Below, piece after piece: positions 423-62,163 of a stretch of 64,000 nt of DNA (its first letter is position 1; the number at the start of each line of letters is the position of its first letter). Under the pieces are notes generated by a model. The model saw only the letters and a program-made list of their open reading frames with translations. It did not search any database and was not told the DNA's origin. The position numbers were made by a program, and so were the translations under genes. Source of the DNA: Escherichia coli (GTDB taxonomy: Bacteria > Pseudomonadota > Gammaproteobacteria > Enterobacterales > Enterobacteriaceae); NCBI RefSeq assembly GCF_009931435.1, contig NZ_CP043414.1. One strand, given 5' to 3'.

Positions 423-500
423 TATCGAATCGTTATTATGTGCAGGTGATTCGGCAGTCTATATCAGTTGTTAAAAATGACAACTTTTCATTAACTGTTA

Positions 501-626
<126 letters not shown>

Positions 627-835
627 GTACCCACAATAACACGAGGGGGTACAACAATGAACATCGGTAAAGCAATCATCAACTACGCAGCGCGTCGCAA
701 CATGGACATTACCTGATTGACGATGAGACCGTGGCGTTCTGGGAAGCGGATAACGATTGTGAATGGATGTTCTCCTACATGATTGGTAATGATGGTTTCC
801 TCCACTTTAAAGGCAATGTGTATCTGCTGTAGTGG

Positions 836-1656
<821 letters not shown>

Positions 1657-1700
1657 GTTGCATACAACGGCAACAGGAAACCGCGCCCTGAGTTTCTCAA

Positions 1701-2012
<312 letters not shown>

Positions 2013-2088
2013 AATGTCACCTGTTTTTGACTATGAGGCGATGATATCACCTCTATTCAGGTGGCCAAATTCAGTGTGCCACTACAGT

Positions 2089-2265
2089 ATGGCTAAGATG
2101 GAATCAGAGATTAAATCACTTAAAGCTGATAACGCCGCATTACGAAAGAGTTTAAAACTGATTGATGAGACTAATGCGGTTATGATGGATCATGTATTCC
2201 CTGAGTGGCGAAATGAAACTAAACCTACACAATATAAGAAACCTACACTTCGAGTGGTTGCATAA
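2089..2265 (+). CDS. Hypothetical 58-aa coiled-coil protein, possibly a gene fragment truncated by the adjacent IS
   Basis: ATG at 2089 directly abuts the IS end (2086) with no Shine-Dalgarno; reads MAKMESEIKSLKADNAALRKSLKLIDETNAVMMDHVFPEWRNETKPTQYKKPTLRVVA. The listed ORF 2014-2265 begins inside the IS terminus. Confidence 0.3.
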   Translation: MAKMESEIKSLKADNAALRKSLKLIDETNAVMMDHVFPEWRNETKPTQYKKPTLRVVA

Positions 2266-2269
2266 AAAA

Positions 2270-2296
2270 AGGGACTCCGAAGAGTCCCTAGTAAGT
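2270..2296 (-). terminator. Intrinsic terminator (minus strand)
   Basis: Hairpin GGGACTC-TTCG-GAGTCCC followed by a run of seven T on the minus strand. Confidence 0.65.
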
Positions 2297-2371
2297 TTAG
2301 GTTAGGTTTGCACAACAAAGATGAGGTTATAATGAACATAATGCTACATTATTCTTTAAAGCCAGAAAAAT

Positions 2372-2392
2372 AACCGCCCCGAAGGGCGGGAG
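2372..2392 (-). terminator. Intrinsic terminator (minus strand) downstream of the small membrane-protein genes
   Basis: Minus-strand hairpin CCGCCC-TTCG-GGGCGG followed by TTATTTTTCT. Confidence 0.6.
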
Positions 2393-2547
2393 GATTAATA
2401 CTCAATCTATACTTGTTATGTTTTTATGTTGTATAGATCACTGACTATGAAAACACTGTACTGGAGTGTGTTTTATGGCTTTTAATCGGGAATCCTCAAA
2501 GAAGATCCCCTGTTAATAACCATAAGGAGAAAAGGCAGATTACACTA

Positions 2548-2721
2548 TTATTTAGCATCCTTTTTACAGCAACTAAAAAGAATAAACAGGATTAAACATC
2601 CCCAGCCGTAAGGTGTACCAATTAGAAATTTGAAAAACACCACCATCGATATAAAAATCAATTTAATGCCAGCGACGATAGTCAAAAACAGCAGAGTAGC
2701 AAAGTAGACAAAAAGATCCAT
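2548..2721 (-). CDS. Small hydrophobic protein (57 aa, about two TM segments, basic C-terminus); not in ORF track (under 60 aa)
   Basis: Manual translation MDLFVYFATLLFLTIVAGIKLIFISMVVFFKFLIGTPYGWGCLILFILFSCCKKDAK; ATG 2721-2719, TAA stop 2550-2548; co-directional with upstream genes and followed by the terminator at 2372-2392. Confidence 0.45.
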   Translation of the reverse strand: MDLFVYFATLLFLTIVAGIKLIFISMVVFFKFLIGTPYGWGCLILFILFSCCKKDAK

Positions 2722-2770
2722 AGATAATCCTCTTTGAAAACGACCATCATCTATAGTTCAATTCATCGAT

Positions 2771-2953
2771 TTAATTAATGATACTTGAAAGCGTTACACA
2801 CAGCAGAAATGCCAATATGTGCCATGAATATACGATAGTTAATCCTACAGTAAGACAAATCAAAAATTCAACCATAGGTAAATCCTCAAATAAGAAAAAG
2901 GTTAGCGGGGGGTGATTCCCCCCGTAGACGTTGACCAGCTCAACATCTTTCAT
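2771..2953 (-). CDS. Small hydrophobic protein (60 aa, about two TM segments)
   Basis: ORF-track protein MKDVELVNVYGGNHPPLTFFLFEDLPMVEFLICLTVGLTIVYSWHILAFLLCVTLSSIIN; starts 21 nt after the stop of the Nu1-like gene. Confidence 0.5.
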   Translation of the reverse strand: MKDVELVNVYGGNHPPLTFFLFEDLPMVEFLICLTVGLTIVYSWHILAFLLCVTLSSIIN

Positions 2954-2973
2954 ACATTTATTTATAACGCGTT

Positions 2974-3525
2974 TTAAGACACATCAAATTCATCGTCTTC
3001 TTCTGGTTCTTGTTCCGGTTCATCCATTAATGGTAATTCTTCTTCCTCGTCTTCTCCCAAATCAGCATTTTCGAACAAGTCCCCTACTTCATTTAAACGA
3101 AGCTCGATGATCTCCCTTAGCTTATTCTTCAATGTTTTCTGATCAGTGGCGGATTCTAAAATTTCTAGGGCATCGATTGTGGCGATCTGCAAGATAGTCT
3201 GCTTCACCTTCCCACAATATTCAGCTAGTTCCTGTTCTACATACCCGACCGGAATCAGGAGATTCATTGCTTCCTGGTTCTCTCGTTCGGCTGCATCTGC
3301 TAATGCTCTCTCACGGCGTAATTTCTCTACGTCGATTTGTTCCTTGATAGAAGTTTCTTTAAGCGGGTTAATGATGTTCTTCAAGACCCAATCACACCCA
3401 GGCTTCGCCGGGACACGTCTTGTATTTGTGTTATAAGGTAGACCCCTTTCTAACCATTTCTTAGCGGCGTTAATTGTATAGCCGTATAAGCGGGAAATTT
3501 CTGTAAGGGTTAATTCTTCTTTCAT
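2974..3525 (-). CDS. Putative DNA-binding protein resembling phage terminase small subunit Nu1 (N-terminal winged HTH, acidic C-terminal tail); orphan, no large terminase nearby
   Basis: Translation MKEELTLTEISRLYGYTINAAKKWLERGLPYNT...EKLRRERALADAAERE...DEEEELPLMDEPEQEPEEDDEFDVS has the layout of lambda gpNu1 as recalled. Start set at the second ATG (3525) because a GGAGG lies about 9 nt upstream; the listed ORF begins at 3540. Confidence 0.55.
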   Translation of the reverse strand: MKEELTLTEISRLYGYTINAAKKWLERGLPYNTNTRRVPAKPGCDWVLKNIINPLKETSIKEQIDVEKLRRERALADAAERENQEAMNLLIPVGYVEQELAEYCGKVKQTILQIATIDALEILESATDQKTLKNKLREIIELRLNEVGDLFENADLGEDEEEELPLMDEPEQEPEEDDEFDVS

Positions 3526-3886
3526 CCGGTTATCCTCCATTAAATTTGCGTAAAATTATTTATCTGATCTACGCATTCAGGAGAGCGCCTAAAACGCTTT
3601 CTAACGACATGAAAGATCTAGGCGTGGAAAGGAATTGGCGGGTGTTAATAGTCGCGTAGCGACCGCGCTGGTGGGCTGCACTGCACCTGTTTTGAAATCT
3701 CACACGCACATCAAATACCGGGGTGCCGAAAACTCCCTTTATTTCATCCGCGGAACAGTACCTTTTTAATTTGTCAAGCATTAATTTCTTAATTTAATTA
3801 CTAAATCTCACCCCAATAATTGAAAAAATATCAAAAATCAATAAAGTAAGCATCTAAAAGTCAGTCCATACCAAAAGAGGTATAAA

Positions 3887-4666
3887 ATGAAAAACATTAT
3901 CGCTGCTATCGTGCTTTCTGCTACTGCTTTCGGTGCTGATGCTGCGTCCTTTGATTGCACTAAGGCTATAACCAAATCAGAGAAGTTTATTTGTGCTAAT
4001 GAGTCAATCTCCGCACTGGATTCTAAACTTCATGAAGTATATGTTAAGGCTGTTAAGATTGATCCGTCTCTTAAACAAGAGCAACGCAACTGGAATAAAA
4101 CTGTTCGTGATACAATGATCAATATCGGGCAGATTCAGCCACTGGAGGCTGTATACAACGCTCAAATCCAAAACTTGATGAATGTATTATCTAAAGAAGA
4201 AACCGCGTCAGAGAGCGTTACAGATGATTCTGCAAAGGTTGAAGAAGAACAACCGAAACAGGAAGAAGTAAAGAAACTGAATGTTACCGCGATTTACGCA
4301 TGTACTGCAAAATTTACATGGAAAGTTATCGATGGTGAGGAAACAGAAGCTGTAAAAGATTACTTATACGGAAACAAAGATCATGATGATAAAGGCGGTA
4401 AACTTAAAATCAAACTGGTAGATGATGTTCCTGTGTATTTTGTTTACACCGACAAATATAACGTTTATAAATCACCACTCAAACCAGCTAAAGAAAATCC
4501 AAACGCAATGGAGGGTAAATCCAAACAGGATACTATTGGACGTGTTAACACTTATAACATCTGGGTAAGCAAAAAAGGTGACATGCGTCTTGAAGTTATT
4601 GAACCAAAATATGATTCTGAATATAAACACACTCAATTTGCATGTGACATGGTAGACGCAGAGTAA
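3887..4666 (+). CDS. Secreted/periplasmic protein with N-terminal DUF1311 (LprI-like lysozyme-inhibitor fold) domain and an uncharacterised C-terminal domain
   Basis: Signal peptide MKNIIAAIVLSATAFGADA; motif FDCTKAITKSEKFICANESISALDSKLHEVY typical of DUF1311; acidic linker; Shine-Dalgarno AGAGG 8 nt upstream. Confidence 0.75.
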   Translation: MKNIIAAIVLSATAFGADAASFDCTKAITKSEKFICANESISALDSKLHEVYVKAVKIDPSLKQEQRNWNKTVRDTMINIGQIQPLEAVYNAQIQNLMNVLSKEETASESVTDDSAKVEEEQPKQEEVKKLNVTAIYACTAKFTWKVIDGEETEAVKDYLYGNKDHDDKGGKLKIKLVDDVPVYFVYTDKYNVYKSPLKPAKENPNAMEGKSKQDTIGRVNTYNIWVSKKGDMRLEVIEPKYDSEYKHTQFACDMVDAE

Positions 4667-5226
4667 GAGGTGAAATGATGCAATTCAATAGCATGAAGAT
4701 TACTCAAAAATGGTGGGATGCGATGAAAGCTAACCACCAGAACGATATTAATTAAGTAACATTTTAGATATACAGCACCCAGCTAACAGATCACCTTTTA
4801 TGGATTTCATTATAACCCCTTTGATCTGGAAACTATGTTAATTAGTTGATTTCTAAGCCTTGTCCTTGTGATGGGGCTTTTTATTGCAAAATTTTTAGTT
4901 ATTTTGGGTTGACTACATTCGGGTTGCCAATTCGCCTGGCTAACTCTTGCTGAGTGATTTCTGACTGTAAAAAAGCATTTAACAGCAATACCTTAGAGGC
5001 GACGCTCAAAGGCACTTCAATAAAGTGATCGTGACTATTTAATGGCGAAGTTTACCTCCGTGTGTAATGTGCTCGAAAATAGCACTAAATCGCCGCAACG
5101 GCAGAATGCAATGCAAAATCAGGAAGGAAGATTCCAGAATTTCTTTGCGCTAATTTGCAAAACTGAATAATAACCTCAAGAAACGATCGGCATCATAGCG
5201 GCAAAAGGTCAGAAAAAGGTGGCGGG

Positions 5227-20139: not shown

Positions 20140-20368
20140 CGACTAAAAACCTCTTTGCGTCACATTTTTACAACAATTATTGCAGAGAAGATTAATGCCA
20201 TTGGATTGAAGAAAGTGAGGAATGGTTAAACTGGCTAACCCGAATGACGAAAAATTCTGGAAAACAGCACGCAATTTCGTCAGGTGATTATTTTCGTCCC
20301 TAAGGAAACCACATAGGATGCTCACGGGTGCCTGAGACTTTCTGTTTTCAGGCTAACCGGGAATCAGA

Positions 20369-20413
20369 AAGACGAAGGCCCCGACCGATATTTCTATCAA
20401 CCGAGGCCAACGA

Positions 20414-20424
<11 letters not shown>
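20369..20424 (-). ncRNA. sokB: sokB antisense RNA of the hokB/mokB type I toxin-antitoxin locus (approximate coordinates)
   Basis: Placed from the conserved hok/sok architecture (antisense overlapping the mok start); boundaries not supported by clear promoter or terminator signals. Confidence 0.35.
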
Positions 20425-20621
<197 letters not shown>

Positions 20622-20866: not shown

Positions 20867-21110
20867 ATAACCTCCATGATTTATCGAATCTTATGTTCGA
20901 TTTGAACGTTATACGCTGGTTTATTTTGATACCGTTGATGAGATCAAAGATCGGGTGAATTGATTAAAGATAAGCCAGATGGACATATGGACAAGGATTA
21001 TGGTTTTATTTGTCATACAAATAAATATAATAGGCGCTTCCGATGTAGGCCCGTATTCTTCGCCTGTACCACGGGTCGGTTTTAGTACAGGCGTTTTCTT
21101 TAAATATCCT

Positions 21111-21641
21111 TCAGGAACGTTTACGCGGCATCATGCGTAGAAGTGTGTTGTCCTTCCAGAAATAGTGGTGTGCCAGTGCAGCCGCAGCGTGCAACCCGAT
21201 GACAAAATATCCCAGATTCGCCAGCGTCTCATGCCACCACTTTAAGCTATCAACCCGTTCGAAATTGGCCTCTGCTGCATAAGGCATTGTCATACCAAAC
21301 GCAAACCACGGGTTGCCCCGGTTATACATCATCACCAAACCAATCACTGGCAGCGCAATAAACAGGAGATAGATCACCAAATGTCCCAAATGTGCCAGTC
21401 CCGTCATCATCGGTTTTGGTTTAGGTACAATCGGCGGAGTTGAGTATTTAAGCCTTAACAAAAGACGAACAACCATCAGCACGAGAATTGAGATGCCACA
21501 GGAAACATGAATCATGTTGATGAGCGGCCGATCGCTACGTGGGAAGAAACCACGAAACTCCATTGCGCAATACGCTGCGATAACCAACAAAAAGACCAGC
21601 CAGTGAATGCTGATTTGTAACCTTGAGTATTTATTTTCCAT
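21111..21641 (-). CDS. cybB: Cytochrome b561 CybB
   Basis: Start set at MENKYSRLQISIHWLVFLL (176 aa). Confidence 0.9.
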   Translation of the reverse strand: MENKYSRLQISIHWLVFLLVIAAYCAMEFRGFFPRSDRPLINMIHVSCGISILVLMVVRLLLRLKYSTPPIVPKPKPMMTGLAHLGHLVIYLLFIALPVIGLVMMYNRGNPWFAFGMTMPYAAEANFERVDSLKWWHETLANLGYFVIGLHAAAALAHHYFWKDNTLLRMMPRKRS

Positions 21642-21829
21642 AACATTTCCTGCTTTAACATAATTTTCCGTTAACATAACGAGCTTTTCTTAAAATTTCA
21701 TTAAATATTGTTCACCCGTTTTCAGTACGTTACGTTTCACGGCAAGAATGTAGATTGCCCATCCCGCCATCCTGGTCTAAGCCTGGAAAGGATCAATTTT
21801 CATCCGAACGTTCCTGACAGGAGAAGACC

Positions 21830-22831
21830 ATGAGTAAAGTTGGTATTAACGGTTTTGGTCGTATCGGTCGACTGGTGTTGCGTCGATTACTTGAAGTCAA
21901 AAGCAACATAGACATTGTCGCTATTAATGATCTCACTTCCCCAAAAATTCTCGCCTACCTGCTGAAACATGATTCAAACTACGGACCGTTCCCCTGGAGC
22001 GTTGATTTTACGGAAGATTCACTTATCGTTGACGGGAAAAGTATCGCGGTTTACGCCGAAAAAGAGGCTAAAAATATTCCATGGAAAGCGAAAGGCGCAG
22101 AAATCATTGTCGAATGTACTGGCTTTTATACCTCCGCCGAGAAATCGCAGGCGCACCTTTATGCTGGTGCGAAGAAGGTGTTGATTTCCGCCCCTGCCGG
22201 TGAAATGAAAACCATCGTTTATAACGTCAATGACGACACACTGGATGGCAACGACACCATTGTTTCCGTGGCGTCATGCACCACTAACTGTCTTGCACCG
22301 ATGGCCAAAGCCTTGCACGACAGTTTCGGAATAGAAGTCGGCACGATGACGACCATTCATGCCTATACTGGCACCCAGTCACTGGTGGATGGCCCGCGAG
22401 GTAAAGATCTACGCGCTTCACGTGCAGCGGCAGAAAATATCATTCCCCACACTACAGGCGCGGCAAAAGCCATTGGTCTGGTGATCCCAGAACTGAGCGG
22501 CAAACTGAAAGGTCATGCGCAACGCGTACCCGTGAAAACAGGTTCGGTGACTGAACTGGTGTCTATTCTTGGAAAAAAAGTGACTGCCGAAGAGGTGAAC
22601 AACGCGCTTAAAAACGCGACAAACAATAACGAGTCATTTGGTTATACCGATGAAGAAATAGTCTCTTCTGATATCATTGGCAGCCATTTCGGGTCGGTGT
22701 TTGATGCCACGCAAACCGAAATTACCGCCGTGGGCGATTTACAGCTGGTGAAAACGGTCGCCTGGTATGATAACGAATATGGCTTCGTCACGCAGCTTAT
22801 TCGCACCCTCGAAAAATTCGCTAAACTCTGA
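21830..22831 (+). CDS. gapC: Glyceraldehyde-3-phosphate dehydrogenase GapC, intact 333-aa frame
   Basis: Full-length GAPDH with NAD-binding GFGRIGR and catalytic SCTTNCL motifs in one frame. Confidence 0.9.
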
Positions 22832-22872: not shown

Positions 22873-24312
22873 TTACGACTGTAAATAAACCACCTGGGTC
22901 TGCAGGTATTCATGCAAGCCATGTTTACCATCTGCGCCGCCAATACCGGATTTACGCCATCCGGCGTGGAATCCTTGCATAGCTTCGAAGTTTTCACGGT
23001 TGATGTAAGTTTCACCAAACTTCAGCCCTTTAATAGCTTTCATCGCGACGTTCAGGTTTTGGGTATAGAGTGATGAGGTCAGGCCGTAATCACTGTCATT
23101 AGCCATTGCGATAGCCTCTTCCAGCGTGTCAAATGCGACCACTGGCAGCACCGGGCCAAAGGTTTCCTCGTGCATAATCGACATTTCCTGACGAACATCC
23201 AGTAGCAATGTCGGCGGATAATAATATCCTTTCCCCTCTACTGCCTTGCCCCCCAACGCCACTCTCGCCCCCTCTTCGACTGCGCGCGCCACTTTTTGCT
23301 CGACCCTTTCCAGCGCCGCGGCGTTAATCAACGGCCCCATCGCAATATCGTTGCGTTCAGCAGGGTTACCAAATTGAACCGCCTGCATCGCTTCACCCAG
23401 CCGATTGACGAAATGATCATAAATGCCTTTCTGTACATAAACACGTTCTGCACAGTTACACACTTGCCCACTATTAATGACGCGTGAATCAACGATGGCT
23501 TTGACTGCCAGTTCAAGATCGGCATCGTCCATTACGATAGCTGGTGCTTTACCACCCAATTCCAGACACACTTTTGTGATATTTTTTGCTGCAGTCGCCA
23601 TGATCTTTTCACCTGCAGAGACGCTGCCTGTCATACTGACCATTGCGACCTTTGGGTTACCCGCCAGTTCTTGCCCAACGGTTTCACCACGCCCCAGCAC
23701 AAGGTTAAACACACCGCGTGGAAGGCCTATTTCATCGACAATTTTGGCAAAAGCAATCGCATTGTTTGGCGTAAATTCACTGGGTTTAATGACGATGGTA
23801 TTACCGGTCAAAAGAGCGGGAGCCATTTTGCGGGCAATGAGGAAGAACGGGAAGTTCCACGGCAGAATGCCGGTAGTCACGCCAAGCGCACGTTTAAACA
23901 GAAGAATATTTTCTCCTGGACGATCGCTTTGAATAATCTCGCCTTCATAACGCCGTGCCCACTCCGCCATGTAATCGATATAGTCCGCAGTAAAAGCCAC
24001 TTCGACTTCAGCCAGCTGCTGGATCTTGCCCCCTTCTTCAACAATCAGCGCACTGATTTCACCTGCGCGTTCGCGGATCCCGGCGGAGATTTTGCGCAAC
24101 CAACTGGCGCGTTCAATGGCAGGCAACGCTTCCCATTCTGGTTGTGCACGTTCTGCTGCATCGATTGCCTTACGGGCATCCTCGGCCTGACCATCGGGAA
24201 TGCGGGAAATGACCGCCTCTGTAGCAGGGTTTACCACATCAATCCATGCGTCTCCACGCCAGGTAACAAACTGTCCATCTATATACATAGGATGTTGAAC
24301 GGGTACTGACAT
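22873..24312 (-). CDS. aldA: Lactaldehyde dehydrogenase AldA
   Basis: 479-aa aldehyde dehydrogenase with catalytic Cys motif (GQVCNCAERVYV). Confidence 0.95.
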   Translation of the reverse strand: MSVPVQHPMYIDGQFVTWRGDAWIDVVNPATEAVISRIPDGQAEDARKAIDAAERAQPEWEALPAIERASWLRKISAGIRERAGEISALIVEEGGKIQQLAEVEVAFTADYIDYMAEWARRYEGEIIQSDRPGENILLFKRALGVTTGILPWNFPFFLIARKMAPALLTGNTIVIKPSEFTPNNAIAFAKIVDEIGLPRGVFNLVLGRGETVGQELAGNPKVAMVSMTGSVSAGEKIMATAAKNITKVCLELGGKAPAIVMDDADLELAVKAIVDSRVINSGQVCNCAERVYVQKGIYDHFVNRLGEAMQAVQFGNPAERNDIAMGPLINAAALERVEQKVARAVEEGARVALGGKAVEGKGYYYPPTLLLDVRQEMSIMHEETFGPVLPVVAFDTLEEAIAMANDSDYGLTSSLYTQNLNVAMKAIKGLKFGETYINRENFEAMQGFHAGWRKSGIGGADGKHGLHEYLQTQVVYLQS

Positions 24313-38531: not shown

Positions 38532-41500
38532 TTAGAACGTTTTCTTGAAGTTCAGCATCACGCCTTTATCGCTGATACCATCCTCTTTCCAGTGGTAAGC
38601 ATCCAGATTCAGCGAACTTTCTTTGCTGCTGTACTTCACGCCGACGCTTGCCAGACTGTTGATGCCGCCGCCCTTCTGCCCATCATCGACATTAAAGTGC
38701 TGGCTGCCTGCGCCTGCCAGGCTTGCCGTGCGCTGGCTCTTGCTGTAGCTGAGGTTCGGCCCACCTTCCAGCGTGGCGTTCGCACTCCAGCCGTCTTTCC
38801 CTGCGTAGTCCAGCTTCAGCCCGACGATGCTGTCCACCGCCGTTTCGCTGCCGCTGTTCATGCTCAGGTTAAAGTCTCCGGCATTGCGCTCCTGATAGTC
38901 GCCTTCCAGCGTGTGACGCAGTTTCACACCCGCATATGGCGTGATTTTCAGCCCTTCGCGCGGTTCAAAGGTTTTCGCCCCTTCGCTGCGGAACTCCAGG
39001 TACTGTTGTTTCACATTCGTGTCTGCCGTCTTACTGATGTCGCCGTAAGCCACCGAACGGCTGCTGTCCAGTTGGTGAATATCGTAGCGCAGCGCGTTAT
39101 TCCAGCTCATACCGTTGTCAAAGGACATCTGATGCTTCAGGCCAAAGAACTGGCTGTAGCCGCCTGTAACACCATTATCACCCGCTTTCTGCGCACCATC
39201 GCCGTCCAGACGGGCGATACCGTACTCCAGGCTCATGGTCTGGTTTTCGCTCAGGTCGAGGGTTTTGCGCAGCGCCAGCATGTCGTACTCGGTATTATTC
39301 CCCAGCTCTGCACGCGGATCGCCTTTCGCCACCACGTTAAATGCCAGACCGTTGCCCATCTTCGGTGCTGCGTCTGCCAGCATACTAAAGCGATTGCTTA
39401 ACACACGCGCTTCGCGGAATACCGTGGTCGCCTGGCTACCGCTAATTTGCTTAAGTGCGCTGTTCAGCTCTGCAGTGGTGCCGACGTTCAGACTGGTATA
39501 CAGCTCATTGTTGGTGTAACCCGCATCCAGCGCTTTTGCCACGTCATTCACTGAGGCATCCGTCGCCACATCGGTGTAGGCTTTTTTGCTCATGGTCACG
39601 TCAACGTTGCCGCTGGCGTCGGTACTGCCTGTCGCCTGCCAGACAACAGATGTCGAAGTGATCGCTTGCGCATCGGTCAGGTTGCTGCCTTGCACCACAT
39701 CATCAAAGCTGGCGGTTTTGTCCGCCGTTCCCGCCGCAAAAGCAGTGTTGATCTCCACGCCTTTCATACTGGCGTTATTGACCATCAGCTTACCAGCGCT
39801 ACCATCGGCGTTCGTCCCCACCACGTAACCATTGAGGTTGTTCATGCCATCGTTGCGGCTAACGGAAGAAGAATGACTGTCGTCGTATGGCGTAATGGTG
39901 GGTTCTTCCGGCGCGGTAAAGTCGACATAGTGTACTTCCGTACCGTCTCCCCCTTCACCACTGCCCTCCATCACCGTGCCAGATTGTTTAATTAATCCGG
40001 AACCATTCACGCTGTCGTCAATATAAACAGTGCCGTTGTTAACAATATGACCATTGCTCCCGAGCTTGCTGAAGGCATATGAATTGCTGGCATATATATT
40101 GATGGTGCCGTTATTCTCAATCACCGCATCAGCCGTGGCATCGGATTCCAGTTGCATCCCTACCATGCCTGTCCTGGTAGTTCCTTGCGTGCCAACGTTA
40201 ATGGTGCCGTTGTTGATCATTTTGGCTTTACCGTGCGCCGACATCGCCACATTACTATTTTTGTCGATATTAATAATGCCGTCGTTTATTGCCTTGCTGG
40301 CCGTGTTTGATGTCAGGATCTGCCCGTTGATGAAGCCAGACTGGCCATTATAGAACGTATGCCCATCACCACCGGTGCTAATTCTCATGTCACCTTCTAC
40401 TGTCCCCCAATTATTAAAATGTCCTGTCCACAGCGCATTCGTCGCCACCGTTGCCACACTGCCTTCCAGATTGTTGAAGGTGCCACCTTTATCAACCGAT
40501 GCATTATTTACGGTACCAGCATTATTAAAGGTAGAGGCTGCAGCAAAAGTTATTTTCTCTACTTTTCCACCGGCCTGATTATTCATTACGGCAGACCCGG
40601 AAGAACCTTTCCAGGCGTTCACCGTTCCGGTGTTATAAAAATTGCTGGCCCACTGGTCAACCGTGTTGATGCTGCCTGAGTTGTGAATAACCGATCCTGC
40701 AACAGTCGTTCCGACTTGCCCGCTCACCGTACCTTCGTTAGTGAACACGCCGCCATCCACAGAAACAGTTTTTGTCGTGCCGTGGTTGGTGTATTCCCCA
40801 CCGGTTGCGATATCAACCTCAATAATACTGCCCGTGGTTTCATTGACCAGATGACCAAAGTCAGCCACGGTGACAGGTCCCCCGGTGACCGTACCCGTGT
40901 TTGTTACCAGGGTTTCGGCGGTTGCCGTGATATCAGTAGTACCGCCATATGAATACAGGTTAAGCGTTTCCCCGTCAGCCGAAATAATGTCACCATTTCT
41001 CCAGCTTAATGAAACAAACCCGTCAGTCGGGTTATAGGCGTTATTGTCCTGGCATTTCCCAAAAGTACAGATGGATCCGTAATTAACGATAGTCCCGCTG
41101 CCATCGTTATAGAACGCCTGCCCGTTTTCAGCATTAATATTGATGATGCCCGTCTGATCATTAATCGCAGTGGCACCATTGTAAACAGCCATGCCGACCA
41201 ATTTATTTGGCCCCAGCGTATCATCATCATTTTCATTTACTTCCAGATTTATAGTTCCCTGGTTAATAATAATGTTACCTGGCTTCATCGCAGCCATACC
41301 GGCACCGGAATTATAGAGTGTTATTTCACCACCCTGCTGGTTAATGGCGGTAGAATTAACGCTGGCACCAGAACTGTCTGTACCCACAGCCATCCCGACA
41401 GCATAATCTTTGGCGCTGTCATGAGCGATATTGGACGCCAGACTGGAAGTATCGTTTTCATCAACCCATAATGCGTCAATGAAAATCTTACCCATATTGT

Positions 41501-44024
41501 CAATGGTTGAATTATTGGAGGCCAGCATGCCAACACTCCCCCGGCCGTACATTTGGATCTCACCGGCAGTATTATTTAAAGCGGTGCCATTGTTGCCTGC
41601 CGTCATCCCCGTCAGACTAATGACTTGATTATTAAAAATTAAAGGGTCACTCAAACCTTGAGCGTTCAGACTATTGAAAATACGTCCCTGCGCGAGTACC
41701 TTACTGGTGATGGCACTGTTATTAACAACTCGACCACCATAGACGCTCAAATACGCAGAACTAGCAGAGTCTGATGTATTCCCCTCTACGCCGTAGATAG
41801 AAATCGTTACGTTGTTATTATTTACAGCTAGCGACTCTTCACCAGTAGCCCTGGCAAAGCCAATATTACCCAGTTCTACATCACCATTATTTATCATCTG
41901 CGAACCGGAATTCACCAGTACAACCTGTGATGTGTCACTATTATAATGTTCAAATGTATTTATATCTTTTAGGATAAAAGTGGCGTTGCGGCCAAGTTCT
42001 AAATGGGCTCGGTTATTCAGTTGAATGATATCGCCTAATCCAAGCGGAAAAACACCACTGATTGTTGAATCCCCATTTAGATACAGAGTAGAGTGCCCAT
42101 CGATTTTGATAACAGGCGTATCGCCATAACCATTACGTTTTAAAGCAGGTGTGGAGCCATCCTGTAGAGTATTTTCTTCGCCAGCTAAATGGATACCACC
42201 ATTAATTTCGACGGTATTACCGTCACCCGACACAACCAGACCATTAATATTTTCCTGGCTGCCATCCATTTCATTATAGATACGAGAAGTGACTTCACTG
42301 TCAGCAACAACGGTAAGATTGCCATTTAATACGATATTATTGTCGTGTCCCTGCACCTGAATGCCAACAGAAGGGGTAAAAAAGTCATTTATTGAATGCT
42401 CTCCGGCCTGATTTTTATCCACCAGAATATTACCGGTAATTTCAACTTCATTGCCATCACCGGCTACATTTACCCCTGTCGCAACACTGCCGGTCACATT
42501 AAGCTCATTTGTCGCCAGCGTCATGGCGTTATTATTTCCAGAGACATCCAGACCGGTTGAATAATCCCCTACATCCACACGGCCAGCCAGAGAAATCAGA
42601 CCATCATCTCCGATGATGCGAATCCCGGTACTGAAATTATCAGCAATGATGTCCCCCACATTGATAAGGGTAGAATGATTACCCTCAATCAGAATCCCTG
42701 TCGCATTGGCCTCTGAACTACCATTACTGACGGATATATCCCCCCTGTTAATGAACGTCGACGCATCACCACTGAGAGAAACACCCTGCGAATTTTCATC
42801 CACGACCGTTATATTTCCTTTGTTGCTGACGATCGCGCCATTACCCTCAACATCAATACCCCGTGCAGCATTGCTAACGTATAAATCCCCTTCCTGTATA
42901 ACCGTCGCATTATTACCAACGATTTTGCTGCCCGTTGAATTTTGCCCATCAACCGTCATATGTCCTTTATTATCGGTCCTGACATCATTACCGCTAATAA
43001 CGGCCCCTATTCCGCCGTTATTGACAGTGGAGTCGCCAGTGTTATTTAAGATTGTACGATCGCCATTGACGATAACCGCCGTGCCAGCATCGACCACCGT
43101 CTGACCGTTATTATTGATGGTTATATTATCGCCGGTCAGGATACCGACCACCGAACCTTCACCGACAGCCTCTGTTTTACCCTCGTTTGTCAGCGCAATG
43201 TTGTTACCATTAATCATCATCACCGTGCCGCCATTCAGGGCCGTGTTACCGCCCTGGTCAGTGATAATCGCATCATTAACGGTAATTATTCTGTCCGTTG
43301 TTCCATCAGACACGACACTGGCTAACTGTGTGACGTGGAGTTTACCTTCGTCATCGTAGCGCCATTCCATATCACCTGTGGTACTCACACCACTAAACAT
43401 GGCGGTATGAGTCTCTTCATGGTTTTCCCACTCAGTCACAATGGTTTTTCGGCCATCTTTTGCCGTCAGCGTGTAGCTACCATCTTCATTTTGGGTATAA
43501 GTGAACGTCGCCCCGCGAATCTTCAGGGTTTGCGCGTCCTTGTCCCATGTCACATTGTTATCAAAGACAACGGGTTCTGTTCTCGGGGGGTCAACATCAT
43601 CACCGCTATTGTCGGGTGGAGTAACATTACCGCCGTTATCTGGCTTTACAGGTATACCTGAATCTTCATCACTGGGAACGGGTAGCGGTAGAGGGCCATT
43701 ATCATCTGGCGGTATGGGCTGGGGAAAAGAAGAGTGAGCAGAATGATCATTGTCATGAGACAATTCAATCACTGCGAGTGTTGCCAGTACCGCCGTGGCA
43801 CCTAATGCCAGTAACGAGCTGAAACCATTATTTGTAACAACAGCACATTTTTCTGGCACTGTTTTCAACTTCGTTGACGGTCGGGCGTGCCCTTCTGACT
43901 GACATGTCATTTGAGAGCTTCTGCGCATACTGTCTGCACTCTCGCCTTCTGTTATTTCCGCCCCCCAGCTTTGGCCACTTAACGCTATAGCGATACACGC
44001 TGATAATAACGTTTTCTTTTGCAT
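38532..44024 (-). CDS. ydbA: Giant autotransporter adhesin YdbA, uninterrupted 1830-aa frame
   Basis: Signal peptide, long degenerate beta-helical passenger repeats (N-x-G-x-I/V motifs) and C-terminal beta-barrel translocator ending ...MLNFKKTF. Confidence 0.9.
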   Translation of the reverse strand: MQKKTLLSACIAIALSGQSWGAEITEGESADSMRRSSQMTCQSEGHARPSTKLKTVPEKCAVVTNNGFSSLLALGATAVLATLAVIELSHDNDHSAHSSFPQPIPPDDNGPLPLPVPSDEDSGIPVKPDNGGNVTPPDNSGDDVDPPRTEPVVFDNNVTWDKDAQTLKIRGATFTYTQNEDGSYTLTAKDGRKTIVTEWENHEETHTAMFSGVSTTGDMEWRYDDEGKLHVTQLASVVSDGTTDRIITVNDAIITDQGGNTALNGGTVMMINGNNIALTNEGKTEAVGEGSVVGILTGDNITINNNGQTVVDAGTAVIVNGDRTILNNTGDSTVNNGGIGAVISGNDVRTDNKGHMTVDGQNSTGSKIVGNNATVIQEGDLYVSNAARGIDVEGNGAIVSNKGNITVVDENSQGVSLSGDASTFINRGDISVSNGSSEANATGILIEGNHSTLINVGDIIADNFSTGIRIIGDDGLISLAGRVDVGDYSTGLDVSGNNNAMTLATNELNVTGSVATGVNVAGDGNEVEITGNILVDKNQAGEHSINDFFTPSVGIQVQGHDNNIVLNGNLTVVADSEVTSRIYNEMDGSQENINGLVVSGDGNTVEINGGIHLAGEENTLQDGSTPALKRNGYGDTPVIKIDGHSTLYLNGDSTISGVFPLGLGDIIQLNNRAHLELGRNATFILKDINTFEHYNSDTSQVVLVNSGSQMINNGDVELGNIGFARATGEESLAVNNNNVTISIYGVEGNTSDSASSAYLSVYGGRVVNNSAITSKVLAQGRIFNSLNAQGLSDPLIFNNQVISLTGMTAGNNGTALNNTAGEIQMYGRGSVGMLASNNSTIDNMGKIFIDALWVDENDTSSLASNIAHDSAKDYAVGMAVGTDSSGASVNSTAINQQGGEITLYNSGAGMAAMKPGNIIINQGTINLEVNENDDDTLGPNKLVGMAVYNGATAINDQTGIININAENGQAFYNDGSGTIVNYGSICTFGKCQDNNAYNPTDGFVSLSWRNGDIISADGETLNLYSYGGTTDITATAETLVTNTGTVTGGPVTVADFGHLVNETTGSIIEVDIATGGEYTNHGTTKTVSVDGGVFTNEGTVSGQVGTTVAGSVIHNSGSINTVDQWASNFYNTGTVNAWKGSSGSAVMNNQAGGKVEKITFAAASTFNNAGTVNNASVDKGGTFNNLEGSVATVATNALWTGHFNNWGTVEGDMRISTGGDGHTFYNGQSGFINGQILTSNTASKAINDGIINIDKNSNVAMSAHGKAKMINNGTINVGTQGTTRTGMVGMQLESDATADAVIENNGTINIYASNSYAFSKLGSNGHIVNNGTVYIDDSVNGSGLIKQSGTVMEGSGEGGDGTEVHYVDFTAPEEPTITPYDDSHSSSVSRNDGMNNLNGYVVGTNADGSAGKLMVNNASMKGVEINTAFAAGTADKTASFDDVVQGSNLTDAQAITSTSVVWQATGSTDASGNVDVTMSKKAYTDVATDASVNDVAKALDAGYTNNELYTSLNVGTTAELNSALKQISGSQATTVFREARVLSNRFSMLADAAPKMGNGLAFNVVAKGDPRAELGNNTEYDMLALRKTLDLSENQTMSLEYGIARLDGDGAQKAGDNGVTGGYSQFFGLKHQMSFDNGMSWNNALRYDIHQLDSSRSVAYGDISKTADTNVKQQYLEFRSEGAKTFEPREGLKITPYAGVKLRHTLEGDYQERNAGDFNLSMNSGSETAVDSIVGLKLDYAGKDGWSANATLEGGPNLSYSKSQRTASLAGAGSQHFNVDDGQKGGGINSLASVGVKYSSKESSLNLDAYHWKEDGISDKGVMLNFKKTF

Positions 44025-53614: not shown

Positions 53615-53642
53615 ATGCTCTGGATAAGGATTATCCAATTCT

Positions 53643-53752
53643 AAAAAAAAGCCCGGACGACTGTTCGGGCTTGTCTTTTTATATGTTGGAAAATCAGTGG
53701 CAATGCAATGGCCCAACAGAAAATAAAATCTGTGACAATAAAGGCATATAAC
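53643..53752 (-). ncRNA. micC: MicC small RNA (Hfq-dependent regulator of ompC), divergent from ompN
   Basis: Minus-strand sequence GTTATATGCCTTTATTGTCACAGATTTTATTTTCTGTTGGGCC...GCCCGAACAGTCGTCCGGGCTTTTTTT matches MicC as recalled; its terminator hairpin also follows the ydbK stop. Confidence 0.9.
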
Positions 53753-53979
53753 TCGCGCAGAATAACGTATAGCAAATTAAAAGTATAATTTTTATTTTGT
53801 ATGTATTATCTTCGATACATTCACCAGACTTATTATCATTTCAGAGGAATTATTTGATTAAGGTTTTACTTAAGGCGTAACAAATGATATTTATCGGCTA
53901 ACTGAACTTCTCCTTTAGGATGTTTTCATTCCCCGAAATGGGGATAAAAGGCAAATAAAATAACTAAAGGATTTATTCA

Positions 53980-58562: not shown

Positions 58563-58684
58563 AAAAAAAAGCCGACTCATCAAAGTCGGCGTCGTACGAA
58601 TCAATTGTGCTATGCAGTAATTCAAAAAAGGAAGTAAGACAATATGGAGCGCAACGCCCATCGCTTGACGTTGCATTCACCTGC
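58563..58684 (-). ncRNA. fnrS: FnrS small RNA (FNR-activated, Hfq-dependent)
   Basis: Minus-strand GCAGGTGAATGCAACGTCAAGCGATGGGCGTTGCGCTCC...GCCGACTTTGATGAGTCGGCTTTTTTTT matches FnrS as recalled. Confidence 0.9.
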
Positions 58685-62061: not shown

Positions 62062-62155
62062 ACCGGCGCAGAGGAGACCATGCCGGATTTAAGACGCGGA
62101 TGCACTGCTGTGTGTACTGTAGAGTCTGGCGGATGTCGACAGACTCTATTTTTTT
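62062..62155 (+). ncRNA. mcaS: McaS (IsrA) small RNA
   Basis: ACCGGCGCAGAGGAGACCATGCCGGATTTAAGACGCGGATGCACTGCTGTGTGTACTGTAGAGTCTGGCGGATGTCGACAGACTCTATTTTTTT in the abgR-smrA intergenic region matches McaS as recalled, including the terminator hairpin. Confidence 0.85.
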
Positions 62156-62163
62156 ATGCAGTT

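Follow-up and report, generated by a model that had tools for sequence, protein, structure and literature searches.

The window, a stretch of 64,000 nucleotides of Escherichia coli DNA, carries gapC between cybB and aldA (Table 1). The gapC reading frame is open from start to stop, with no internal stop or frameshift in the ORF listing. The order cybB-gapC-aldA is the same in K-12 and in six other genomes, and the locus is that of K-12 gapC. In the closest complete genome RefSeq lists an intact 'gap' CDS whose coordinates are identical to those of the window gene. Two further elements lie on the cybB side: the RydC sRNA (Rfam, 90.5 bits) directly downstream of cybB, and an intact hokB toxin ORF of 49 aa with the sok antisense RNA (Rfam, 114 bits). 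hokB is unannotated in strain 2013C-4282, whose gapC is closest to that of the window.

The local signals of gapC are largely shared with other strains. The ribosome-binding site AGGAG is also kept in K-12, in 2013C-4282 and in the BL21 derivative, and the 188-bp upstream region differs from that of K-12 by a few substitutions and matches that of 2013C-4282 exactly. A sigma-70 consensus scan upstream of gapC gave a single weak site (21635-21664), no better than chance, and for this reason no promoter is claimed here. A chance-level sigma-70 result is compatible with a sigma-38-type promoter, without demonstrating one. The hairpin that separates the gapC and aldA stop codons has a predicted folding energy of -19.3 to -20.3 kcal/mol, with z = -3.7 relative to shuffled sequences. 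It was not listed by the consensus terminator scan, and the stem is followed by UCUUUCAC, with four U only; a role as shared terminator of gapC and aldA is nevertheless likely, or at least plausible.

Table 1. Coordinates of the gapC locus and of other features of the window, with the basis of each assignment
Feature	Position	Strand	Remarks
hokB-sok region	20326-20621		Rfam match for sok
hokB toxin ORF	20472-20621		49 aa, intact
RydC sRNA	21037-21100		Rfam
cybB (cytochrome b561)	21111-21641	-	Upstream divergent neighbour; ORF and annotation in K-12 and the closest genome
cybB-gapC divergent intergenic region, presumed gapC promoter region	21642-21829	+	Conservation against K-12
Shine-Dalgarno sequence AGGAG	21819-21823	+	6 nt before the gapC ATG; read from the sequence
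gapC CDS	21830-22831	+	ATG start, 333 codons and TGA; ORF list, Pfam, TIGR01534
Codon 39, K-12 nonsense site	21944-21946	+	AAA (Lys) in the window, TAA in K-12; pairwise alignment
Codon 111, TAT (Tyr), private D111Y	22160-22162	+	Comparison of alleles and homologues
Codon 150, TGC, catalytic cysteine nucleophile	22277-22279	+	SCTTNC motif; C150 essential in EcGAPDH1 (PMC8615399)
Codon 177, CAT, catalytic histidine	22358-22360	+	IHAYT motif; H177 essential in EcGAPDH1 (PMC8615399)
A7 homopolymer, codons 248-250 (Gly-Lys-Lys)	22573-22579	+	A6 in K-12, -1 frameshift; alignment and haplotype table
GC-rich hairpin, 9-bp stem, 6-nt loop	22839-22862		Between the stop codons of the converging genes gapC and aldA
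aldA (aldehyde dehydrogenase A)	22873-24312	-	Downstream convergent neighbour; ORF and annotation in K-12 and the closest genome
YdbA/BigA-type autotransporter ORF	38532-44024	-	1830 aa, uninterrupted; BigA_N and BigA_beta domains
MicC sRNA	53635-53755	-	Rfam gathering level, full length, ordinary
FnrS sRNA	58567-58684	-	Rfam gathering level, full length, ordinary
McaS sRNA	62062-62157	+	Rfam gathering level, full length, ordinary

The protein matches both GAPDH domains of Pfam at full length, Gp_dh_N at residues 3-102 (1e-35) and Gp_dh_C at residues 155-313 (5e-58), and thus has the N-terminal NAD-binding Rossmann domain as well as the C-terminal catalytic domain. With TIGR01534, the NCBIfam equivalog for type I GAPDH, it reaches 444.6 bits (cut-off 367.2) and is aligned over positions 1-330 of 330. 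A family match of 445 bits over a 1-kb ORF makes a chance origin impossible. With the GapA-type model PRK15425 the score is 302 bits, against a cut-off of 662. A single frame holds the motifs GFGRIGR (residues 8-14), NDL (33-35), SCTTNC (149-154) and IHAYT (176-180), together with TTGAAKA (208-214), RVP (232-234) and WYDNE (312-316). The catalytic pair is formed by Cys150 within SCTTNC and His177, about 27 residues further on, and a preference for NAD is indicated by the GxGxxG fold (GFGRIGR) and the acidic Asp34 at the end of beta-2.

RefSeq flags the gapC CDS of K-12 substr. RV308 as a pseudogene, 'frameshifted; internal stop'. Global alignment of the window gene with that of K-12 revealed 41 differences (95.9% identity), two of which are disabling in K-12: the stop at codon 39 and the shortened adenine run at codons 248-250. 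Past the frameshift, the C-terminal peptide of the window protein is recovered in frame 3 of K-12. A first-pass annotation of the window had described gapC as an intact gene of 333 codons with all catalytic motifs in a single frame, and had described the K-12 gene as a disrupted pseudogene. Its coordinates and codon count are exact, the GxGxxG fold, Asp34, Cys150 and His177 were all located, and the RV308 record bears out the pseudogene in K-12. The alignment that it had proposed is the one that places the two K-12 lesions, and a contradicting stop or frameshift, sought by alignment in the window gene, is absent.

Both lesions are common in nature. Alleles were counted in 5426 complete E. coli genomes with 55-mers centred on the SNP, each 28-base megablast seed being forced to include the allele. 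Codon 39 is TAA, as in K-12, in 1155 genomes and AAA in 3881; genomes in neither class presumably have polymorphisms close by, which would disrupt the seed. The K-12 A6 frameshift haplotype was counted in 1050 of the 5426, and stop and frameshift co-occur in roughly a fifth of the genomes. Since the stop is also found in isolates from pig, chicken, dog, bullfrog, sediment and seawater, the lesions are a trait of a natural lineage and did not arise through passage in the laboratory. The K-12 pseudogene is most probably the derived state, produced by a nonsense mutation and a homopolymer frameshift in a natural lineage that makes up about one fifth of sequenced E. coli, and the window strain lies outside that lineage.

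The gapC locus was found in 5417 of the 5426 complete genomes, and the intact gene is the majority state, carried by roughly three in four E. coli genomes. RefSeq annotation was inspected for every second record from an evenly spaced sample of the ranked matches (n = 19). An intact gapC of 1002 nt is annotated in 14 of these 19 genomes; the five broken copies comprise two of the K-12 type, two with other frameshifts and one truncated by IS1. The gene is also intact in O157:H7 and in the BL21 derivative T7Express, and the translation of every fetched allele agrees with the intact or broken call of RefSeq. Record span was tried as a proxy for frameshifts and rejected, as two genomes with a 1200-base span have an intact gapC and carry the indel in the spacer before aldA. 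The insertions seen within the gene are +1 at nt 564 in CFSAN004176 and +2 at nt 881-882 in 2013C-3181. These two frameshifts may be homopolymer errors of long-read assemblies, in which case the fraction of intact genes lies somewhat above the sample estimate. IS1 is active at the gapC locus of other strains: in T7Express a copy of IS1A about 110 bp upstream of gapC (locus record 1-110) replaces the cybB side of the intergenic region, and in the raw-milk isolate SCPM-O-B-7615 IS1A truncates both gapC and aldA (locus record 2829-3600).

The position between divergent cybB and convergent aldA and a nucleotide identity of 95.4-99.6% to 21 alleles identify the window gene as a gapC orthologue. GapC has further orthologues, 87-96% identical, in E. 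albertii, Citrobacter, Trabulsiella, Klebsiella and Enterobacter. At NCBI the exact window protein is a 'MULTISPECIES ... [Escherichia]' entry found on 19 contigs, and its 90% cluster has 4797 members. Only 16 genomes are at least 99% identical to the window across gapC, and this scarcity is not specific to the gene. Against K-12, dS is about 0.13 for aldA and cybB, and the GC and GC3 contents of gapC match those of neighbouring genes. Horizontal acquisition or relaxation of gapC, considered on account of its 4% divergence from most E. coli, was rejected because aldA and cybB are equally diverged, GC and GC3 match, and the whole first 25 kb is only about 96% identical to most genomes. Positions 1-25000 of the window share 98.7% identity with 2020CK-00188 and about 96% with most other E. 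coli; for positions 25001-50000 the nearest match (99.1%) is another strain, of goat origin. Because the first and the next 25 kb have different closest strains, the neighbours are equally diverged and the GC content matches, the window is assigned to a divergent, mosaic Escherichia lineage, and the gapC allele reflects that background. No match to the whole window at 99% identity or more was found among complete genomes, so that the window may stem from an Escherichia lineage that is cryptic or under-sampled.

The window allele has one private residue, Tyr111. Asp occupies position 111 in 17 other intact alleles, the K-12 gene, the crystallised enzyme and the two closest genomes; the Tyr111 allele was found in 0 of 5426 complete genomes, and Tyr at this position is unique among the 134 proteins examined. 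The substitution is one of just 4 nucleotide differences from the closest gapC allele. Such a change would suit an intact ORF that encodes a crippled enzyme, the gene being functionally dead or dying in a small clade, and it is the rarity of the residue together with the Asp of the two closest alleles that speaks for this explanation. It is nonetheless improbable. Position 111 is not conserved, with T, D, E and Q in close orthologues, and lies outside the located motifs; among the 126 homologues with a findable flanking motif it is T in 66, D in 46, E in 7, Q in 6 and Tyr only in the window protein. The exact protein is moreover present on 19 independent contigs, which implies that the variant persists. 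GAPDH folds in general would place the residue on the surface of the NAD domain, where a helix ends. Because the position is variable and outside the catalytic and cofactor motifs, Tyr111 is probably tolerated.

Selection on the intact gene was estimated by comparison of the window gapC with five other intact alleles. The dS values were 0.013-0.19 and dN/dS was 0.03-0.10; wherever changes are numerous enough to count, dN/dS was 0.03-0.05 (about 0.04). Ratios this low over a dS of up to 0.19 indicate long-term purifying selection on gapC. They are at odds with a silent relic, that is, a gene that is intact only for lack of time to gather lesions and contributes nothing to the cell. Such a relic would account for the independent inactivations, which are common in the sample of 19 (the K-12 type, the two other frameshifts and the IS1 truncation), for the roughly 20% of the species that lives without an intact gapC, and for the lack of a strong promoter in the consensus scan. 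Against it stand, besides the dN/dS ratios, the conservation of gapC across enterobacterial genera, the possibility that the two other frameshifts are assembly errors, and the regulation of gapC transcription even in K-12, where the transcripts were reported to be sigma-38-dependent (PMC2759082) and to be raised by carbon limitation (PMC4512719). We consider this account very unlikely, somewhat more so than a crippled enzyme. Least probable of all is an active protein that is not a true GAPDH in vivo and acts instead on another aldehyde-phosphate (compare Epd/GapB) or in a special pathway (compare the ArsJ-associated GAPDH): such roles have been taken on by the GAPDH fold again and again, gapC adjoins aldA, another aldehyde dehydrogenase, and there are matches to Epd (275.6 bits with TIGR01532, 279 with PRK13535) and to the ArsJ-associated model NF033735 (304.6 bits), but these fall far below the respective cut-offs of 530.55, 539 and 450 while TIGR01534 is passed, the flanking genes are cybB and aldA with arsJ absent beside gapC in both the window and the closest genome, and the crystallised E. 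coli enzyme EcGAPDH1 (PDB 7C5F), identical to the window protein at 329 of 333 residues, turns over glyceraldehyde-3-phosphate with NAD.

With high confidence, the window gene is therefore regarded as an intact, ancestral enterobacterial gapC that encodes an NAD-dependent phosphorylating type I GAPDH (EC 1.2.1.12). By sequence criteria it is very probably functional. By comparison with the near-identical crystallised enzyme, Cys150 would attack the aldehyde of glyceraldehyde-3-phosphate with His177 as the base, hydride would pass to NAD+ bound by the GxGxxG fold, its preference over NADP being due to Asp34, and the thioester would be cleaved by phosphate to give 1,3-bisphosphoglycerate. The gene is predicted to be translated from its own ribosome-binding site and to share its terminator hairpin with aldA. 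Its transcription is probably conditional (sigma-38, carbon limitation, fresh water), by analogy with K-12 and with published work, and the housekeeping role in glycolysis would belong to GapA and not to GapC. Because the window gene is free of the K-12 lesions and keeps all catalytic residues, the strain very likely makes a second GAPDH besides GapA, on the assumption that it has the usual gapA, which falls outside the window. The suggestion of a second functional GAPDH made by the first-pass annotation is thus supported. The novelty that it implied for an intact gapC does not hold, since this is the majority state in E. coli and is already known: it has been in the literature since 1998, and the enzyme has been crystallised and assayed. 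A passage of PMC2949598, citing Espinosa-Urgel and Kolter 1998, describes gapC as 'intact in environmental isolates' and reports its expression in fresh water. A K-12 gapC deletion was used in PMC3080795, where the gene is termed an enzyme gene without comment. A knockout of Klebsiella pneumoniae 'gapC' (PMC8243499) was kept out of the evidence for E. coli gapC, and Martin and Cerff 2017 (PMC5610209) was set aside as it deals with plant GAPC and not with E. coli gapC.

Correct annotation would credit the window strain with a putatively functional gapC, and metabolic models based on K-12 would miss the GapC isoenzyme. By-products of the comparison are an exact description of the two K-12 lesions and their recognition as a natural lineage polymorphism instead of a laboratory artefact. 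The strong constraint on the intact gene raises the modest question of its purpose, be it survival outside the host, starvation or low temperature. More tentatively, the K-12 pseudogene might be the fixed state of a large natural lineage (about 20%), and not an outcome of domestication in the laboratory, the wording used in the secondary literature, with the rest of the species keeping gapC under strong purifying selection; this would imply a lineage-specific ecological trade-off over a second, stress- or cold-expressed GAPDH. Separately, and as tentatively, the D111Y allele could have altered properties.

Elsewhere in the window, the uninterrupted YdbA/BigA-type autotransporter ORF is annotated as intact in the closest genome as well. 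K-12 ydbA is split by insertion sequences, and the ORF may be a second window gene that is whole here and a pseudogene in K-12. Near the start of the window, fragments of the hicB antitoxin (501-620 and 4920-5048) are annotated in the closest genome, which shares the coordinates at 98.7% identity, on either side of an insert of about 4.3 kb. The insert holds a frameshifted IS3 transposase, an ORF of 183 aa without a Pfam match (2974-3525, minus strand) and an ORF of 259 aa with a marginal match to LprI (3887-4666, plus strand). No hicA is annotated at this locus (window about 500-5050), which looks like a toxin-antitoxin locus destroyed by insertion.

Among known systems EcGAPDH1 (PDB 7C5F, 7C5G, 7C5H, through 7C5R) is the nearest to the window protein, being the product of the same gene at the same locus, with the same length, domains, Cys150 and His177. 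From the window protein to EcGAPDH1 the differences are I29V, Y111D, N262Q and N265T, and of the four window residues only Y111 is absent from other natural alleles. The T7Express allele (WP_000048667.1) differs from the window at the same four residues. EcGAPDH1 was reported to have a KM of 0.73 mM for glyceraldehyde-3-phosphate and to lose its activity near-completely or completely in C150 and H177 mutants (PMC8615399). It was crystallised with NAD and with glyceraldehyde-3-phosphate and 1,3-bisphosphoglycerate intermediates (PMC8615399; PDB 7C5F and relatives). The K-12 pseudogene (b1416/b1417, gapC_1/gapC_2) has the same cybB/aldA locus, ribosome-binding site and upstream region, and in this comparison the lesions are those of K-12 alone. 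GapA (PRK15425) shares family, fold and chemistry with GapC but is a distinct paralogue whose gene lies elsewhere on the chromosome. Of the two, GapA resembles the eukaryotic enzymes and GapC represents the usual bacterial type. Epd/GapB (TIGR01532) has the fold and the Cys/His chemistry in common with GapC, which is not itself a member of that family.
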